The translations under genes and the position numbers were made by a program. Shown here piece after piece: positions 18,025 to 55,264 of a DNA stretch of 64,000 bases. The stretch lies in IMG/VR virus record IMGVR_UViG_3300018494_000083; one strand, 5' to 3'. Every line of letters starts with the position of its first letter. Positions within the stretch are counted from its first letter, which is position 1. The notes beneath the pieces are model-generated. The model was not told the origin of the DNA. It made no database searches and saw nothing but the letters and a program-made list of their open reading frames with translations. This stretch comes from a virus (Duplodnaviria; Caudoviricetes).

Positions 18025-19266
18025 ATGCTCAAAAGACCTACTTATGAGGAATACGATGAGTATATAATTGACTATGAAACTACGAATGTAAGTTTTATTG
18101 CAATGGCATCTATTCTTCGAAGAAAAGGTGTTAAGAACTATAACTTCTTCCTGAAACTGTACGATGAAGACCTCCAAGGAGTGGATCCTAAAGATCCCAA
18201 TTTGTCTATGGCTATGAAGATGAAAGTCATCATGGAGTGTAGACGAAACTTCTGGTACTTTATCAGAGAAGTTATGTATATCCCTGGTGGACAGAGATTT
18301 ACTCTCCATCGTGGCAACTTAGCAGCACTTTGGTGTTGTCTAAACAATATTCCGACCTACTTGGTTCTCCCTCGTCAGCATGGTAAAACCTGGGCAGTGA
18401 TTGCATACGCTCTTTGGGTATTTAACTTTGCTTCTGAGTATACGAACTTCCTCTTTATGAACAAGCAGTTGGGAGACTCTCAGTTGAACCTTAAGCGTCT
18501 TAAAGATGCTAGAGCTGAGCTTCCCGATTACCTCAGAAATGATAAAGTTCAAACCTCTAAGGGTGAATTTAAAGATGGTCCTTCAAACGTTAATAAACTC
18601 TCTAACGCACTTCATAACGAAATTACCGTTAAAGCATCTGCTCGTAACCCGATCTCTGCCGATGAGCTAGGTCGTGGTATGACCGTGTCTTGGGTATGGA
18701 TCGACGAGATGGCATTCTTGCAGTTCAACAGAATCATCTACATGGCGATGTCCCCTGCATGGTCGAAAGCAGCAGAAGTTGCAGTTGCTAAGGGTAGACC
18801 TATTGGTAAGATTCTTACTACTACTCCTTCCGACTTGTCAACTGACATGGGTAAATTTGCATATGAAATTCGTGGAGATGCAGCAAGATTCTCTGAAGAT
18901 CTTTACAATATGGATTCTGATGAAATTGCTACCTGGATGGATAAGAACTCTAAGAATGGATATATTTATATCGAATATAACTATATGCAACTTGGACACA
19001 AAGATCCTGGTAAGTGGTTCAAGGAACAGTGTAAAGACATGCTCTTTGACTGGTCTAAGATCCGTCGTGAGATACTTCTTCAGTGGAACAATGCTTCTTC
19101 GAACTCTCCGTTCGACCCCGAAGATTTGCGACAGCTCAGAGCTATGTGCATAAACGAATCTGAAAATGACTCGATTACTATCAACAAGTACTACAAGCTT
19201 AATGTATATCGTCCGCTCCACTCTACTGATAAATACATCATAAGTGTGGATCCGGCGAAAGGACGT
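18025..19266 (+). CDS. terL: terminase large subunit, exon 1 (join 18025..19266,19608..20561)
   Basis: Walker A PRQHGKT, Walker B WIDEMAF, LTTTP, nuclease motif ISVDPAKGR interrupted by an intron. Confidence 0.9.
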
Positions 19267-19607
19267 TATTTCACTGGCGTCGTTGTACAGCAATGTGCAA
19301 CTAGAACCTATTTAAATTGCGACTATTTGCTAAAGCCCTTATGCTCGAAAGAGAACGAAAGTAGAAATAAGTTAAGGGATGACAAGTGGGAGAAATCCCT
19401 CTATTGCCGGTGCAATGCAAGATTCGCAGCTTAGTGAAATACACTAAGTTCAACGACTATCTCCATGTCGGAGAGTAGAGCACGTAAGTTAATGACGGCT
19501 CGAAAGAATAGGCTCCTCGAAAGAGGATGAAAATATAGTCTCAACTTCCAGAGAAAGACTGGAGCAGCAAAAGCGGGTTAGCGTTACGAACTAACCGAAG
19601 ATAATTG
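19267..19607 (+). mobile_element. group I intron (341 nt, no ORF) in terL
   Basis: P1 gacgU/Gcgtc with U.G at 5' site; core gttcaacgactat and aatatagtctc; terminal G; splicing gives in-frame VDPAKGR-GDKADRTVIEV. Confidence 0.9.
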
Positions 19608-39868: not shown

Positions 39869-40132
39869 CAGTATCTTCATGTAGGTCGTTAATCTACATC
39901 GTCATTTAGACTGCTCTAGGTCGCCCTAGAAGTTGAGACTATATCTTCACTTTATAAGTGTCTACCATTTCCATTTAAGGGATTCTCACCCACTCACTTG
40001 AGCCGTACTCCTGTTGCTCTATTTACGATCGCCGAGCCTAGGGATAGTCGTTGAACGTTACTCTTTCGAGTCTTCGCTGCTGATTGTCTGCTAGAGACTT
40101 CCCAGCAATTAGATAGATAAGGGCTAATGTTA
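39869..40132 (-). mobile_element. group I intron (264 nt, no ORF), second intron of RNAP beta-C gene
   Basis: P1 GGGU/GCCC; core gttcaacgacta and aagatatagtc; terminal G before GAA CAG. Confidence 0.88.
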
Positions 40133-40144
40133 ACCCAAGCGATT
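40133..40144 (-). CDS. 12-nt micro-exon (Asn-Arg-Leu-Gly) of RNAP beta-C gene
   Basis: AAT CGC TTG GGT between two intron cores; yields PDQC-NRLG-EQELN. Confidence 0.82.
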
Positions 40145-40428
40145 CATTATGTTCACACAGGTCGTTAATCTGCGCAGTTCTCTTACGAACTTCTCTATAT
40201 TGCTATAGATGTTCAGACTATATCACCACCCGTTCTGGGTGCATACCATTTCGAATTAAGGGAATTTCACCCGCTCACTTGAGCCCTACTCCTATTGGTT
40301 ATTTCAAACCCGAGGGATAGTCGTTGAACGTTCTCCTTACGGAGCTTCGCTGCTGATTAGGTCTATGACCCTTCCAGCAATTAAATATGTTTGCTACTAG
40401 CTATTCCTAACTAGAGGTGCAATTGCTT
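40145..40428 (-). mobile_element. group I intron (284 nt, no ORF), first intron of RNAP beta-C gene
   Basis: P1 GUGU/GCAC; core gttcaacgacta and gatatagtc; 3' end tgaacataatG. Confidence 0.88.
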
Positions 40429-42174
40429 ACACTGATCAGGGTATGGAATTTTATGTCTTGCTGCCTTGGTGGATTTAATAGGCATTGAGGTTCGAGGATT
40501 GTTCATTGACTTAGAACGTACAGAGAACTTAGTAACAGGTTCCTGTTTAAGTCTCATAATATATTCGTCAGCCACAATTACTTTCTTGATCGTCTTATGT
40601 CGTTCACCATCCTCGTTAGTGTACGTCATATAGGTACGTTCAGGATTAAACTTATCATAGAGCTTGACCATAGTATCGCCATTTACGCAGTACATCGGAG
40701 ACTGGATGATATAGATTCGTCCATCTTCTATCTTCTTCATAAAGTCGATTACTTCATCATTACTCTTGTATGCGAGGTACTCTCTCATGGATGCGGCTTG
40801 TTCAGGGGCAGCAATATCCAAGAAGGAATAGAGATACTTAAACTTTTCGGAAAGAGAATCCATACGAGAGATTCTATCCCTTACAGTTTCAGCAATCCAG
40901 TTCAATTCCATCTCATAAAGCTGACCACTGTTAAGACGACCAAGAACGCCAAGTGCATCGATTCGGATATCAGGCACTACACCATCTTCAGTGCATCCCA
41001 TTTCCTCATCAGAAATGACGTTACTTAATACGGATTTATTACCGTATCTACCTGCAATCTTACATCCTCTACGGAGCTTCTCTATTTTATACATAGTGAA
41101 TTCCATCTGGATATTGGAGAAGATTTTGTCTTCATCTGCATACTTACAAGTAGGGTCGAGGTAGTCTTTTGCCTTCGAATACAGTCTGGAAAGTTCCTCG
41201 GTGTATTTAGAATCTGAATTGATTATCTTCTGGAACTCTTCATAGATTTCCGTATAATACTCAATCAGTCGTCTCATGTAACGCTTTACCTGTGCATATG
41301 CGGGAAGATCAGGTATGTCATCAATCGATTTGTTTGACCAAATATCGATATCTGCGATTACGAAGTTATCAGACATTTGGTATACATCATCGGATGGGAA
41401 AATCTTTCGCAGATTAGAATTCTTCAGATTGAACTGGTCCATTGCCTTGTTCTTTCTTCGAACTGCACAGATTACTGCCTTTTTGGTTTTCTCACCAATG
41501 TCAGGGAACGACTTATAAGTCTCGCTATTACCGTAGATATTCAGAGGAATATCATTATCGTTGATCGGTACATCGCAAGTATCTACATATGTCGTTGCCA
41601 TCTTCTTGGCGAAGCTTTCGGATACAACAACTGCATCCTCAATGGTTTCCTGTGATATCACGTAAACTACCTTGGCATTGACACCATATCGGTAGTTCTG
41701 GTACTCGTCAAAAGACGGTGACATATACATGACTGTGTCTTTTGGAACTGTGTCACCAACTGAATATGAGTCGATAACTTCATTGTTCCATTTATACCCA
41801 TACATCTCGGACAAGTTTCTCACTTCCTGTCTCTGAAGAATTCCGTATTCGTCTTTCTTCGGGTCATAGGTAATGAGAGTATACGAGAATCCAGGGTACT
41901 TCTCAATCTTCTTCACGATCTTGATTTTACTATCTGTCTTCTTATATCCCGTGGAATACTGACCGAACATATGTTCATAGCCGGTAAGCACACCAGGGAT
42001 TTCGGCATGGATAGGAACCAAGCATTGCATCAAGTGAGAACTCAGCATTGTAGCTCTTGCACTTGATGAGTATGAAGAGAGAGATAATAAGCCTATAGAC
42101 AAGGCATCGTCGAGAGAGTCAAGTTCATTTGCTCGATCTCGTATTTCTTGCTCGAAGTAAGCTTTGTTACTCAT
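40429..42174 (-). CDS. RNA polymerase beta C-terminal subunit, exon 1 (spliced product 685 aa)
   Basis: SARATMLSSHLMQ, EDAVVVS, GCKIAGRYGNKSV, GVLGRLNSGQLYE, YIMRLKQ. Confidence 0.9.
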
Positions 42175-42260: not shown

Positions 42261-42734
42261 TTAAAAGTCATCGTCAAGGAAGTCGTCGAGTGTATCATTC
42301 TTAGAACGATCATCGTCGTCGTCATCAAGAGTTTCCTTAGTACCAAGATACTGCTGATAATAAGGAAGCATGAGATTGTATAATGTTACGATCAACATCG
42401 GGTTCTCAAATGCCACCTCACAGAAAGTCTTCTTAGAGAAAGGACAATCCTCATGACCAGGAATAACAAACTTGTTACCCTGCTTCTTAACGATATTAGC
42501 GTTGATTGCATTATGGAGAAGAGTCAGAGACTGACTGAATCCATTCTGCTTATCGAAGATCAGTTCGATATCTACATTGGATGCGTTGGTTCTTGACTTG
42601 TAGTATACAGCACTAATGATATTACCATTAATACCATATTCCTTGTCAGGCTTAAGCATTCCCTTATTCTTCAAACGAAGAGTGTTATTGGAAAGGTATA
42701 AGAATGCTCTACCACCGCTAAGTGATTCGTTTTC
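42261..42734 (-). CDS. recA: RecA/UvsX-like recombinase, exon 2
   Basis: ENESLSGGRAFLY corresponds to RecA ETTTGGNALKFY. Confidence 0.85.
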   Translation of the reverse strand, partial: ENESLSGGRAFLYLSNNTLRLKNKGMLKPDKEYGINGNIISAVYYKSRTNASNVDIELIFDKQNGFSQSLTLLHNAINANIVKKQGNKFVIPGHEDCPFSKKTFCEVAFENPMLIVTLYNLMLPYYQQYLGTKETLDDDDDDRSKNDTLDDFLDDDF

Positions 42735-43151
42735 CATTATCTTCACACAGGTCGTTAATCTGTGCAGTTCATTAAGAACTTCTCTAGGTCACCCTAGAAG
42801 TTGAGACTATATCTCGATCTTTACAGATCCGTTCCATTTCGATTTAAGGGATTCTCACCCACTCACTTGAGCCCTACTCCTATTGCCATTTTAAAGGGTT
42901 GGCTATTTCAGGATAGTCGTTGGACGTTTAATAGATTGGCTCTCCCGATGGGAATTGAACCCATAAAGAGATATTCATAGTGACGTCACTTCTATTATTA
43001 TTACCTCCACCCTTTCCGGTCGGGCGTCTTTACATTTGACCACGGGAGAATATACCATATCTATTACTTCGCTGCTGATTGTCTACTTGAGACTTCCCAG
43101 CAATTAGAAACGTTTCAGTTATAAGTCACCTTATAACTAGGCGAATGTTTC
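42735..43151 (-). mobile_element. group I intron (417 nt, no ORF) in recA, carrying a tRNA-like insert
   Basis: P1 UAGGU/GCCUA; core gtccaacgacta and agatatagtc; splicing gives LVGLG-ENESLSGG. Confidence 0.88.
42937..43049 (-). tRNA. tRNA-like element (113 nt) with non-canonical anticodon arm and very long variable arm, inside recA intron
   Basis: 7-bp acceptor UCUCCCG/CGGGAGA + G + CCA; T arm AUGGG-UUCAAUU-CCCAU; D arm GUC/GAC. Confidence 0.65.
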
Positions 43152-43943
43152 ACCTAACCCTACGAGATCCCGCGCCGGTGGGAGGAAGCCCGTCGATATC
43201 TTTCTACTGATCTGGTTGATTACGAAGAGGAGAATGTTTGCTTTCTTACACCAAGGCAAGATCTGCTTAAACATCTCGGAATTGAACTTGGCGTTTCTAG
43301 CACCTGCCATATTATTGGTGGCACTATCAAGACCGTCCATGTTTTTTGTTTCCTCAAGAATAGAACTATCCTCAGAACGCATCACAGCCAAAGAGTCAAT
43401 GATTACGACCGTAGGAATGAGTTTCTTAATAGGAGCACCGTATGTATCCTTAAGATTACTTTGGGTATCCTCAAACTCTTTTCTATTATTGAGTTTCATT
43501 TTTGCATGGTCAAGGAATCTATCTACGATCTGCTCAGCATGGGTATCCTGGTAGATAGCATAGTGATTTCTTACCCATTTGGTTTTCATACCGGTAATGT
43601 TAATTACACGGTTAATATGTGAAGACTGCTCAATATCCTCATGGATAGTGAAAGCATTCTCATATCTGGAAGTGATTGCTACTGCAATCTGTTGGGACAA
43701 TGTGGTCTTACCGAGACCAGGGTCTGCGATAAATGCGGTCATTGTACCATCAACGAGTCCAACGGAATCGTATTCTTCAATACACTCGTCATCATCGTCG
43801 TAAACTTTTACACGTTGACCGTTAACGAAGTCCAAGGGCATAAAACCGGTAGGATATGCAATAGGTGTAGTTGCCTTCATATCCTTGGCTTTCTTCTGCT
43901 CTCTGACATTGTTAAACATTAGAAGTCCTAGTGTCTGAGCCAT
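43152..43943 (-). CDS. recA: RecA/UvsX-like recombinase, exon 1 (spliced product 421 aa)
   Basis: PTGFMPLD, Walker A ADPGLGKTT, DIEQS, Walker B IIDSLA, VINQI. Confidence 0.88.
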
Positions 43944-46149: not shown

Positions 46150-46250
46150 TGTTATTCCTCCCTTGAGTTATTTTTAGCTTGGTCATACTTATAATGTATA
46201 TCCCAATATAAAATTGTTTCTGGGTCATTAAAATCGAAGAAGATCTAATA

Positions 46251-47545
46251 TTACAGACTAAAGATACCATGATATACCTGCCATTCAAACCACTCATCTG
46301 TACTAATTCCGGACCATGCAATCATAACACATCTCCCATCTTGTATATCATAGTTATAGGTTCTAGCACCTGGAGTAGCACCATACTTTTCATTAGGTGC
46401 AGATTCTCCACTCTTTCCACTTTTCTCAATATATACCGGTATTTGGCTATACCAGCTACGAATATTCTGACTGACCCACTCAGTTATTGCTCCATTCCAC
46501 GGAGTAAGCAAACACGGGCAGTATCATAAGGCAATATATTTTCAACAATATTACCATTAGAACCGATTAAGAATATGAATTGACTATACCAGTGCTTAAT
46601 ATTTTGTATTACCCAGTCATCTATATTACTCATCCATGGAGTAATTCACCAACTAGTTTAGATGATGGATTATATGATAGACATGTGCCATTGTTGTAAA
46701 TAGACATTATCTGATCTAGACTATATGTGCTGGTTGATTCATTTCGTGGAGTAAGTGCGTACCATTTATGCTAATTCCAGGATGTCTCAATGTTCTAGTT
46801 CCAGCTAAATAGATTATAAGCCAGTTATAATCTGTTGGATCCGTAGATTCAAGTAAATAAACTGGAGTAGATTTCACCACTTGCACTTTACGAAGTCATA
46901 TTCTTATTCATAGCTTGACCATAAACATGAATTTTATTTGTTATTTTACATTCTTTATCATTTTGAAAATATGGAGTCGTCATACTGATAATAGCAGATC
47001 CAACCCATACCTACATAATAATCATATATTACAAACATATCATCGCTAAATGATTGAGTATATGGTGGCAGATATGCACTACTTGGAGTCCATACGAACT
47101 AGTTGTCATATCATTATTGAAATCTCCTGTATCTCGTATTAAGCAAATTAAGTTATTCAACCAGGTATTTCCAGCAGAGGATAACCATCTTGGAGTTAAT
47201 CACCTGCACCAGTTCGTTCACCGACCCAGTGTCCCTGATATGTATAACTGGATCCAGCCCAATTAATTCCAGCTATCCTATTTATTTCTTTTTGATGTTC
47301 GGATTCTGGAGTAGATATTCACCAATTGCGGTGTATGAACTATATCCCCAGTCTTTTAATATGGATAATCCAGTTATATCTTCATAAGCAAACTTTCCTT
47401 GTTCAATATTGATCAAAGATGGAGTAATCCACCAATGTGAGCATTTACGGAATACGTGTGATCAAATGCTTCACCAATCTTGACTGTTTTCCAATGTCTA
47501 TGTTCATTATACGTTGACATTTCATGCCTTGCTAACGGAGTCAAT
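46251..47545 (-). repeat. array of 11 start-less coding cassettes (107-137 nt period), each starting ACT-CC(A/G) = Thr-Pro
   Basis: ACTCC starts at 47541, 47425, 47312, 47196, 47089, 46977, 46868, 46752, 46642, 46505, 46376; TP frame open across 10 of 11 units. Confidence 0.85.
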
Positions 47546-47551
47546 TTAAAC

Positions 47552-47593
47552 AAAAAAAATAAAGATTGAGAGGTGGGTTTTCCCCCACCTCTC
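47552..47593 (-). terminator. intrinsic terminator upstream of the cassette array
   Basis: gagaggtggg/cccacctctc stem with U tract on the minus strand. Confidence 0.75.
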
Positions 47594-53028: not shown

Positions 53029-53097
53029 GACTTATACCTCTCTAAATCTTAATTATATGATTGTTCCAGGGATATTTGAATAAAAAAAAGAAAGATA

Positions 53098-53127
53098 AAC
53101 CCCATGGGAAATTAATCCCATGGGGTT
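53098..53127. terminator. intrinsic terminator hairpin at the left end of the non-coding region
   Basis: aaccccatggga/tcccatggggtt flanked by A and T tracts. Confidence 0.75.
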
Positions 53128-55134
53128 ATTTTTCTCGGCTACCGACGCAGAACATGAGTGTCTCTGTGTATAACTGTTTCTCCCTGCGCCCCTCATCGTG
53201 TCTTCCTCTATGGCTATAATATGTATTATTTCCATATGGTTGAACACCCTCATCCAATTAACTAATAAGGAGACTCTTGTTGGCGTAGTTTTGTTACGCA
53301 ATCGCCTACATTAATTAACTTAGTCACCTTTCGGGACTCGTCCTCGCCTCACATCATATAACGACACCCAATGACTGGGTGTCAAAAAGTTAAGGTGAGC
53401 TATTACCCATTGTAACTTCTCTACCTTATAGTGGTAGGTACGGATAAATTACATAGGTCCCAGGTCACTCATTTCTGGGGCTCTTCATGGTCTCTCCATA
53501 TTGAGGATCAATTTGAGGCTTACCATTATTGCCACCCTCTTAATGAAGGCTCTAGAAAGGACATTAAGTCTTTACATTAGCGGCTGGAGGTGTCGTAAAG
53601 AACAACGTAGAACTTCGACAAAATGTACCGCCCGGCATGTCGACTTGACCCATGCCGATATCGAGAAGCCAGCAATCGCGGGAAACATCACATTCATCAA
53701 ATGACTGTACCGGATTCACTTAATAAATTGAAAGACCGAGAATGCTAGCTGGATTGTGCCCACGACTGCTCTAGCATATCATGGGCGGATAGAAGACAGC
53801 GACTGCTCTAGCATATCGCCGTCTGAAAGGAAAGATGTTAAAGTCGTGTGCTCTAATTTAGAGACGTGTCAGGCTCTAACATCAACATGGGAGATTTGAG
53901 CTTCGAACTCACTGTCGCTTTGTTGATCTCTTTATCATAACGACATCCATCTGGGTCTGCGGCTTCCCACTAACCTCGAAATGACTCTGATTTCAACTAA
54001 CACAGAATCTCCATTTAGAAATTTGACAACCGGTCTAGAGACGTATATCACGGGACCATACGATCATATATACGCTATAGTTTAACTCTAGCTTGGCTCT
54101 ACTCTCATTCCACGTGCAGAGACCAGTAGATCTATATAGACTATCTTTCGATAGTTATATTTAGCTGGAGCAGATTTACTGTGCTTCGAATCACAGCTTT
54201 CCCAAACCTGCCAGAAACGTGCACCTTTTTACCAGCCGCAACGTAGCACTCCGTTACTTGGGCGATGTTTGAAACATCAACATATCTCATGCCCCGTGAG
54301 AGGTTCTTACTTACAGCGTGACCTACATTATCCATCAAACATACAGCTTTTTACTTACTTCAAGTTTCAAAATCCTTTGGGGAGATCCACTTTGGTAACG
54401 GTACTGTAACCCGGCTCAGAAAGTGCGCCCACCCAGCCAAGGGAGCCCGCTAGAAATGCCCACATGACCGCGATCACCGAACGACTCGGATGCGGATACG
54501 GGGGGATGTGCGGGCGGCGGCGAAGCAGCACCAAGTATATGTGTCTTAGCCCAGTCCTTAATATGTCGATGCTATGAGCGTTAAACCAAAAGTTCGTCAG
54601 AATTTTACTGACCGAGAACCTCGGGCATCGATAAATAAAAATAAGAGAGATACTTCATATCATCGCTTGACTATTTGATATATGAGTTTAACGTGTCTGT
54701 CGGATTCGACGGCAACGGCAAAGCAATTCGTTGATAAGACACTATGAAAACTCTAATAGGTTGATCACCGATGAAAAAGGATGCATTAAAAAATGACACG
54801 TATCCATAATGAAGGAAGCAATGGTACAAATGTCACAAGCGGCAAAAATGCAATCGCTCCAAAGCAATTTGGGGCTGGAAGATCGTCCTCCTTTTCATGA
54901 CAAAGCCAAACAGTTCTTAGATTACGAGAAACAAACAAGAAAACTTCAATTCGCAGGATAACAAGAAGGAATGTGAAGTCGTTGAATCTAGAATCAAATA
55001 TGAGTATCTCTCTATGGTGTTAGGTGGAGGGTATGACCCTCCCATTGGGTTTCCTGTGAGCAGTGTTTATTCTTCCTCGTGGGCAACGGGATTACCGGAG
55101 AAACCAAAGAACACAAATGTTACCTAACATATGG
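53128..55134 (-). ncRNA. candidate long structured non-coding RNA (~2 kb)
   Basis: No ORF above 82 aa in an otherwise gene-dense genome; many hairpins; two promoter motifs point into it; strand inferred from the promoters only. Confidence 0.4.
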
Positions 55135-55228
55135 TAATAATTTGTTAGAGAGTGTATTATTTTTTATTCTCACTAACCCATTATCGTAATTATAATATAT
55201 AATTATCTTTTGTGATAATCCAAATAAA

Positions 55229-55256
55229 TGAGGGGATAGTTTTGTCTATCCCCTCA
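55229..55256 (-). terminator. intrinsic terminator after gyrA
   Basis: tgaggggatag/ctatcccctca stem. Confidence 0.7.
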
Positions 55257-55264
55257 CCATTTGT

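Follow-up and report, generated by a model that had tools for sequence, protein, structure and literature searches.

The window analysed here, a stretch of 64,000 nucleotides (IMG/VR record IMGVR_UViG_3300018494_000083), is part of an AR9/phiKZ-like jumbo phage (family matches to split RNA polymerase subunits, UvsX, major head, sheath and topoisomerase). Relatives of this phage assemble to 257-262 kb, and the contigs that carry it come from animal gut metagenomes. Its uvsX/recA gene, whose first exon has its best phage matches in Staphylococcus jumbo phages and AR9/PBS1, is interrupted by a group I intron, named intron B. The P6a hairpin of this intron holds, between the Q and R motifs, an element shaped like a tRNA. 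The features of the locus are presented in Table 1.

Table 1. Features of the uvsX/recA locus and of the element within intron B.
Feature	Position	Strand	Remarks
uvsX/recA exon 1	43152..43943	-	264 codons, ending ...RDLVGLG; phrog_97 UvsX-like, E 1.3e-25
Group I intron B, 417 nt	42735..43151	-	IA2-like with P7.1/P7.2; RF00028 63.9 bits
P1/internal guide and P2 of intron B	43118..43151	-	identical in the tRNA allele and the endonuclease allele (vs L331)
P4/P5 module	43071..43105	-	near-identical to recA intron A and the second RNA polymerase beta intron; starts the swappable P4-P6 cassette
P6a 5' strand	43059..43066	-	8 bp with 42936-42929; pair probabilities 0.87-1.0
9-nt leader	43050..43058	-	UGGU (43057-43054) pairs with GCCA when the insert is present
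113-nt tRNA-shaped element, nucleotide 1 to CCA	42937..43049	-	Rfam tRNA 34.3 bits; null test; closest tRNAs Arg(CCG), Arg(UCU), Glu
D arm	43026..43040	-	position 19 (43032) U or C, not G; A20 present
Hairpin replacing anticodon arm	43009..43025	-	3-4 bp, 9-nt loop, non-canonical; no assignable anticodon
42-nt long arm replacing variable loop	42967..43008	-	linked A-U to G-C change (42995/42977); GGAGG motif; alternative folds compete
T arm, acceptor 3' strand, G73, CCA	42937..42964	-	22/28 nt identical to phage tRNA-Arg(UCU)
P6a 3' strand	42929..42936	-	fold prediction
uvsX/recA exon 2	42261..42734	-	starts ENESLSGG; phrog_97, E 1.8e-5

Intron B scores above the gathering threshold of 50 bits of RF00028, and its P, Q, R and S core motifs are present. 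A U.G pair is found in P1 at the 5' splice site, and omega-G is the last nucleotide of the intron. When the exons are joined across it, the result is an open frame of 421 codons, in which RDLVGLG is followed directly by ENESLSGG, matching intronless homologues. By its sequence, intron B is a predicted self-splicing group I intron with a canonical core.

Group I introns are frequent in this phage. Rfam yields five in the window plus a weak sixth of 38.5 bits (19257-19561, plus strand), located in the terminase large-subunit gene. Tandem introns lie in the RNA polymerase beta gene at 39914-40164 and 40193-40438 on the minus strand, separated by a micro-exon of 12 nt (NRLG; 40165-40176 region), and strains have zero, one or two of them. 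In many strains (L011-L036) recA also has an intron A after codons PPA, which leaves a 7-codon micro-exon before intron B and likewise occurs with or without an HNH gene in P6 (L032 3934-4737). Contig L020 (1740-2100) contains a fusion of two introns, with recA intron A supplying the 5' part and an RNA polymerase intron the 3' part and with the intervening DNA deleted, which reflects either recombination between sibling introns or misassembly. Given that recA is apparently interrupted at several further sites in homologues P0008, P0014, P0027, P0038 and P0046-P0054, the gene appears to be an intron hotspot in this phage family. The distant relatives L001, L003 and L007 have a tubulin gene upstream of recA, at a distance of two or three genes, to which nothing in the window matches.

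A first-pass annotation, made from the sequence alone, had proposed a tRNA-like element nested in P6 of the recA intron, with a perfect acceptor stem, T arm and CCA and a non-canonical anticodon arm, and these descriptions hold. The segment from Q to R spans 146 nt in intron B versus approximately 20 nt in the sibling introns, whose P6 is short, as that annotation had noted. The acceptor stem has 7/7 and the T stem 5/5 Watson-Crick pairs, the latter with a UUCAAUU loop, accompanied by U8, a 3-bp D stem, G73 and CCA. When a 701-base stretch is scanned, the element scores above the gathering threshold of RF00005 (29 bits; E 2.3e-5). The recommended check with tRNA finders was thus positive with the Rfam model on this stretch, but cmscan of the whole window and ARAGORN at default settings both miss the element; standard tRNA finders overlook it. 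In 400 simulated 64-kb windows, the combination of a 5/5 T arm, CCA and a 7-bp acceptor stem with U8 was never obtained (0/400). The folding z-score of -1.0 is not significant alone. Given that contigs from two other studies span the element with 2 differences, and that 20 other contigs carry it, the element is real DNA rather than an assembly artefact.

In comparison with a functional tRNA (RF00005), the element has the acceptor stem, the T stem with a TTC loop, the D stem and NCCA. It does not have the anticodon stem of 5 bp with a 7-nt loop and U33, in whose place there is the hairpin of Table 1 or a mismatched alternative, nor does it have G18-G19 and the G19-C56 corner. The anticodon and long-arm region has an alternative fold within 1 kcal/mol. 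The D loop had been described as lacking GG; it lacks only G19, which is U in the window and C in the L011 allele, and the G19-C56 corner is therefore lost. Possible tertiary contacts by canonical numbering are U8-A14, A15-U48, G18-U55 and U54-A58. With G19 lost, the anticodon arm broken and a 42-nt arm for a variable loop, the element, as far as its sequence can be read, cannot decode. To read the anticodon as Ser(GGA) or as Arg(CCG) takes 3-4 edits in either case, and none was assigned. The low-score ARAGORN call of a "tRNA-His with a 44-nt intron" was likewise rejected, its stems being mismatched and no splice motif being present.

The origin of this shell was approached with two independent pattern searches, one for each half of the element, and each led to a tRNA-Arg: the 5' half shares 16/17 nt with a clostridial tRNA-Arg(CCG) (L252), and the 3' half shares 22/28 nt with a phage tRNA-Arg(UCU) (L339). 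A covariance model of the element yielded weak matches to Arg, Glu, Thr and Leu tRNAs, none of its own length, and A20 and G73 fit tRNA-Arg. The shell thus resembles tRNA-Arg or tRNA-Glu, and its parent isoacceptor was likely, yet not certainly, Arg. Like the bacterial and phage tRNA-Arg(CCG/UCU) and tRNA-Glu found (L252, L339, L346, L343) in the sequence of its acceptor, D and T arms, the element differs from them in having U1-A72, no G19, no anticodon arm of 5 bp and 7 nt, and the 42-nt extra arm.

Other classes of tRNA-like RNA were considered and rejected. Class II tRNAs (Ser/Leu/Tyr/Sec) and allo-tRNAs combine a long variable arm with a matching acceptor identity (for Ser, G1-C72 and G2-C71) or with 8/5, 8/4 or 9/3 stems, whereas the element has 7/5 stems, U1-A72 and C2-G71, and its best matches are class I Arg and Glu. 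A tmRNA would present G3.U70, A73 and a tag ORF; the element has U3-A70, G73 and no ORF, and both ARAGORN and Rfam were negative. For YrlA or Y RNA, which have a Ro60-binding stem, there was no RF02553 match at E<=10.

Deleting 43049-42937 in silico yields a perfect P6a hairpin of 10 Watson-Crick pairs plus a G.U, the 9-nt leader forming its top, as compared with 8 bp with the insert present. The closing stem of the first-pass annotation exists, but it has 8 bp and not 7. Deletion from nucleotide 1 to CCA ranks first among 340 boundary pairs; three others tie with it on pair count, being equivalents within an AT repeat that are compatible with a 2-base target duplication. The restored P6 segment of 33 nt is within the normal range of related introns. 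By chance, two extra pairs are expected in approximately 7% of 9-mers, and UGG in approximately 9%. An allele with the restored empty hairpin was not found among related P6 segments or with IMG/VR patterns, and the alternative allele replaces the whole P4-P6; hence, the ancestral empty hairpin is reconstructed rather than seen. The junctions are suggestive of, and do not prove, a precise insertion from nucleotide 1 to CCA.

With the insert present, the leader UGGU is predicted to pair with the GCCA end (P>0.9), extending P6a into the acceptor stem. Pairing between leader and RCCA slows RNase P, where the pairs adjoin the cut site at -1/-2 (PMC9433436). That the displaced leader pairing of intron B would have the same effect is an extrapolation.

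Strains that are approximately 98% identical in their exons fall into three classes at the intron B site. Contigs L010, L013 and L017 present an empty site directly, and further contigs encode an uninterrupted exon product. The tRNA-shaped element is found in 20 contigs, as four alleles, and a different P4-P6 with a 276-aa NUMOD-type endonuclease gene in five (L331-L333, L336, L337), counts that come from samples that are not independent. Between the endonuclease and tRNA alleles, P1-P3 are identical at 52/52 nt (L331, up to AATTGC) and the 3' half at 175/190. Given that P4/P5 is near-identical to that of sibling introns while P4-P6 differs between alleles, P4-P6 behaves as a cassette exchanged between conserved core motifs. 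Since sister alleles carry an endonuclease gene in P6 or have no intron, the element can be dispensed with and sits where such introns usually have their cargo. In the distant phages L001 and L003, an intron at the same codon has a plain short P6.

The element has four variable sites: position 19, one loop base (42987 G>T in L033 and L155) and the linked A-U to G-C pair at 42995/42977. All are loop or compensatory under the cloverleaf model. The covariation, which had been proposed as a check across homologous introns, amounts to a single compensatory event among strain alleles; it is not significant against shuffles (78/500), and the helix has a low probability of 0.07-0.27. None of the alleles varies in the acceptor, T and D stems or in CCA, an observation of low power given a strain divergence of only approximately 2%. 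The loop substitution breaks the palindrome of the long arm, which was noted earlier as a feature and is neither conserved nor, consequently, retained as a functional motif. A 16-codon ORF over the T arm was also rejected, being destroyed in the L145 and L011 alleles.

No homologue of the element was found outside this phage species with exact patterns in IMG/VR and GTDB genomes or with blastn of phages and plasmids. The covariance model, applied to the window, 100 loci and 151 genomes, matched only ordinary tRNAs of 75-87 nt, and short BLAST matches in L047, L113, L129 and L133 were attributed to chance. A pattern of T arm plus CCA just before the R motif retrieved at least 118 stretches, which look like prophage attachment sites; among the matches listed, none had intron motifs. 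In approximately 100 related P6 segments of viral contigs there were hairpins or ORFs and no tRNA. Two metatranscriptome runs contained only pieces of sibling introns and scattered gene pieces, none covering the element, which speaks neither for nor against an RNA product.

The position of the element is best understood against known cargo of group I introns. The td intron of T4, with I-TevI, is an example of a phage intron with an endonuclease ORF in P6. Such introns (reviewed in PMC3984707) are of the same class as intron B and have the same cargo position, and the sister alleles carry such an ORF; in contrast, the cargo of intron B is a structured tRNA-shaped RNA without an ORF. The first-pass annotation knew of no tRNA nested in a group I intron, which is too strong a statement. 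The hexacoral mitochondrial ND5-717 intron has a tRNA gene in P8 (PMC6545197), equally a peripheral segment, although its insertion is an ordinary genome block of up to 16 genes with a functional tRNA, and not a single 113-nt non-decoding module set flush in a hairpin. GOLLD RNAs embed tRNAs or pseudo-tRNAs (PMC12286853, PMC6582537) and are similar in that a tRNA shape is nested within a larger phage RNA, in one of its variable regions, whereas the host RNA of intron B is a splicing ribozyme in a protein gene. Twin-ribozyme introns also have a second structured RNA domain in a peripheral helix, the lariat-capping ribozyme GIR1 (PMC3679873), yet GIR1 is catalytic, intron-derived and serves an endonuclease mRNA, while the element derives from a tRNA and is accompanied by no ORF. 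A literature search, which covered few subscription journals, retrieved no description of a tRNA-shaped module in the P6 of phage or bacterial introns. New in intron B are the exact insertion boundary, the pairing of leader UGGU with GCCA, and the three allele classes, including an endonuclease in the same loop.

Around the observed shape, boundaries, three allele classes and loss of decoding features, the reading we favour, with a probability of about 0.5, is that of a tRNA-derived, non-decoding module that was inserted once and is kept folded as a passive cargo domain of P6. Its point of entry would have been the 3' strand of a P6a hairpin already present, and its ends exactly nucleotide 1 and the CCA. 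Because both junctions coincide with mature tRNA ends, the insertion may have proceeded via an RNA intermediate, by ligation or by template jumping of a reverse transcriptase. Once transcribed, the module would fold on itself, sealed at its base by the 8-bp P6a and by the pairing of UGGU with GCCA, and would project away from the catalytic core, so that the intron self-splices normally; P6 does project from the group I core (PMC3984707). RNase P would act poorly on the module, given its paired CCA end and the loss of the G19-C56 corner, and the intron would survive an occasional cut, its halves being held by P6a; group I introns cut or split at P6 still splice (PMC11879131). Selection would then act only on the module staying folded. 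Recombination between the near-identical core motifs on either side of P4-P6 would carry the cassette from strain to strain, and the endonuclease allele would supply homing to empty sites.

The passive reading is supported by the degeneracy of the module: it has U or C at position 19 and a disrupted anticodon arm, and in one allele the palindrome is disrupted as well. In addition, a pseudo-tRNA inside GOLLD RNA gave no detectable product (PMC6582537). Against it, the perfect and invariant acceptor, T and D stems and CCA exceed what a pure passenger needs, an argument of low power.

A tentative alternative is that the element is itself a tRNA-shaped intron, giving a nested "twintron": host RNase P would cut at nucleotide 1 and a 3' nuclease after CCA, and an RNA ligase would reseal P6a. 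Its kin would be the "enigmatic" tRNA introns of Lak megaphages, some of which are tRNA-like (PMC6784885, Fig. 4, Table S6) and which resemble the element as tRNA-like inserts, present or absent among strains, in RNA of a gut jumbo phage. The insert would have jumped from tRNA anticodon loops into a ribozyme hairpin, perhaps after loss of an endonuclease gene from the long arm, whose GGAGG motif resembles the ribosome site of the endonuclease allele. As in the Lak inserts, the boundaries are those of a mature tRNA, and removal restores the host RNA, here a perfect hairpin, although in silico only. The host, however, is P6a of a group I intron and not a tRNA anticodon loop: Lak inserts split that loop and must be removed, whereas excision from P6 is unneeded because this cargo-tolerant loop accommodates an 830-nt ORF in sister alleles. 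Moreover, Lak inserts are AT-rich, with an AT-rich leader inside the intron, and share no sequence with the element by eye; the CCA is sequestered in the fold prediction; none of the genes in the window was identified as an RNA ligase; and no second copy or relative was found. It is similarly doubtful that a mobile tRNA-shaped intron left anticodon loops for a ribozyme in a protein gene, with an inner layer cut out by tRNA-processing enzymes and the ends resealed by a ligase, releasing a CCA-ended mimic, and an outer layer self-spliced.

Equally speculative is a function as a tRNA mimic, in which the stable excised intron would be trimmed to a CCA-ended RNA that is a decoy for host defences targeting tRNA or binds ArgRS or EF-Tu. 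The perfect acceptor and T arms, the Arg-like A20 and G73 and the possible tertiary contacts agree with this, as do the absence of any other tRNA-like sequence in the window and the fact that the tRNA allele is the commonest intron B allele among the fetched contigs (20 vs 5, a biased sample). Nevertheless, a decoy for anticodon nucleases needs the anticodon loop, which is the broken part; G19 is lost and drifting; many strains of this one species, the only one in which the element was found, are without it; and the CCA end is predicted to be paired with the leader, a kind of pairing known to slow RNase P.

Far less probable is that the tRNA-like domain would recruit a host tRNA-binding protein as a splicing helper. 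Precedents are the mitochondrial TyrRS (CYT-18) and LeuRS, and both the position on the P4-P6 domain and the tRNA-like surface would suit such a role; yet in the siblings the same P4/P5 module functions with a P6a of 4 bp, and the core is canonical. The suggestion of the first-pass annotation that cleavage by RNase P or RNase Z splits the intron and so switches recA splicing off does place a cleavable shape inside an essential RNA, but it is highly improbable, as P6-split introns remain active (PMC11879131), the 8-bp P6a would hold the halves, and strains exist without the element or without the whole intron.

The cargo slot of phage group I introns, known for endonuclease genes, is occupied in intron B by a folded tRNA-shaped RNA, and a single phage species provides the natural controls, namely alleles with the endonuclease and alleles without the intron. 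Judging by the flush junctions, mature tRNA-like RNAs may be able to enter the genes of other RNAs, a point of relevance to the unexplained tRNA-like introns of gut megaphages. At 417 nt, the intron is small enough for in-tube tests of splicing, RNase P cleavage and re-ligation. If the module is only a passenger, it remains an oddity and a natural case of a self-splicing RNA displaying a tRNA scaffold; if the mobile two-layer intron were true, it would be a compact substrate, with a protein-free outer layer, for testing a postulated cut-and-ligate route and the spread of such inserts to new sites.

The element is the only tRNA-like sequence in the window. The region 46150-47590 is ORF-poor, and its length and gene calls vary among strains. 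The region 53030-55260, on the minus strand, comprises 2.2 kb without long ORFs; it matches no Rfam family, has hairpins and T-loop-like motifs near 54190 and 53910, and shares an 11-mer (near 53575) with the D loop of the element, possibly by chance.
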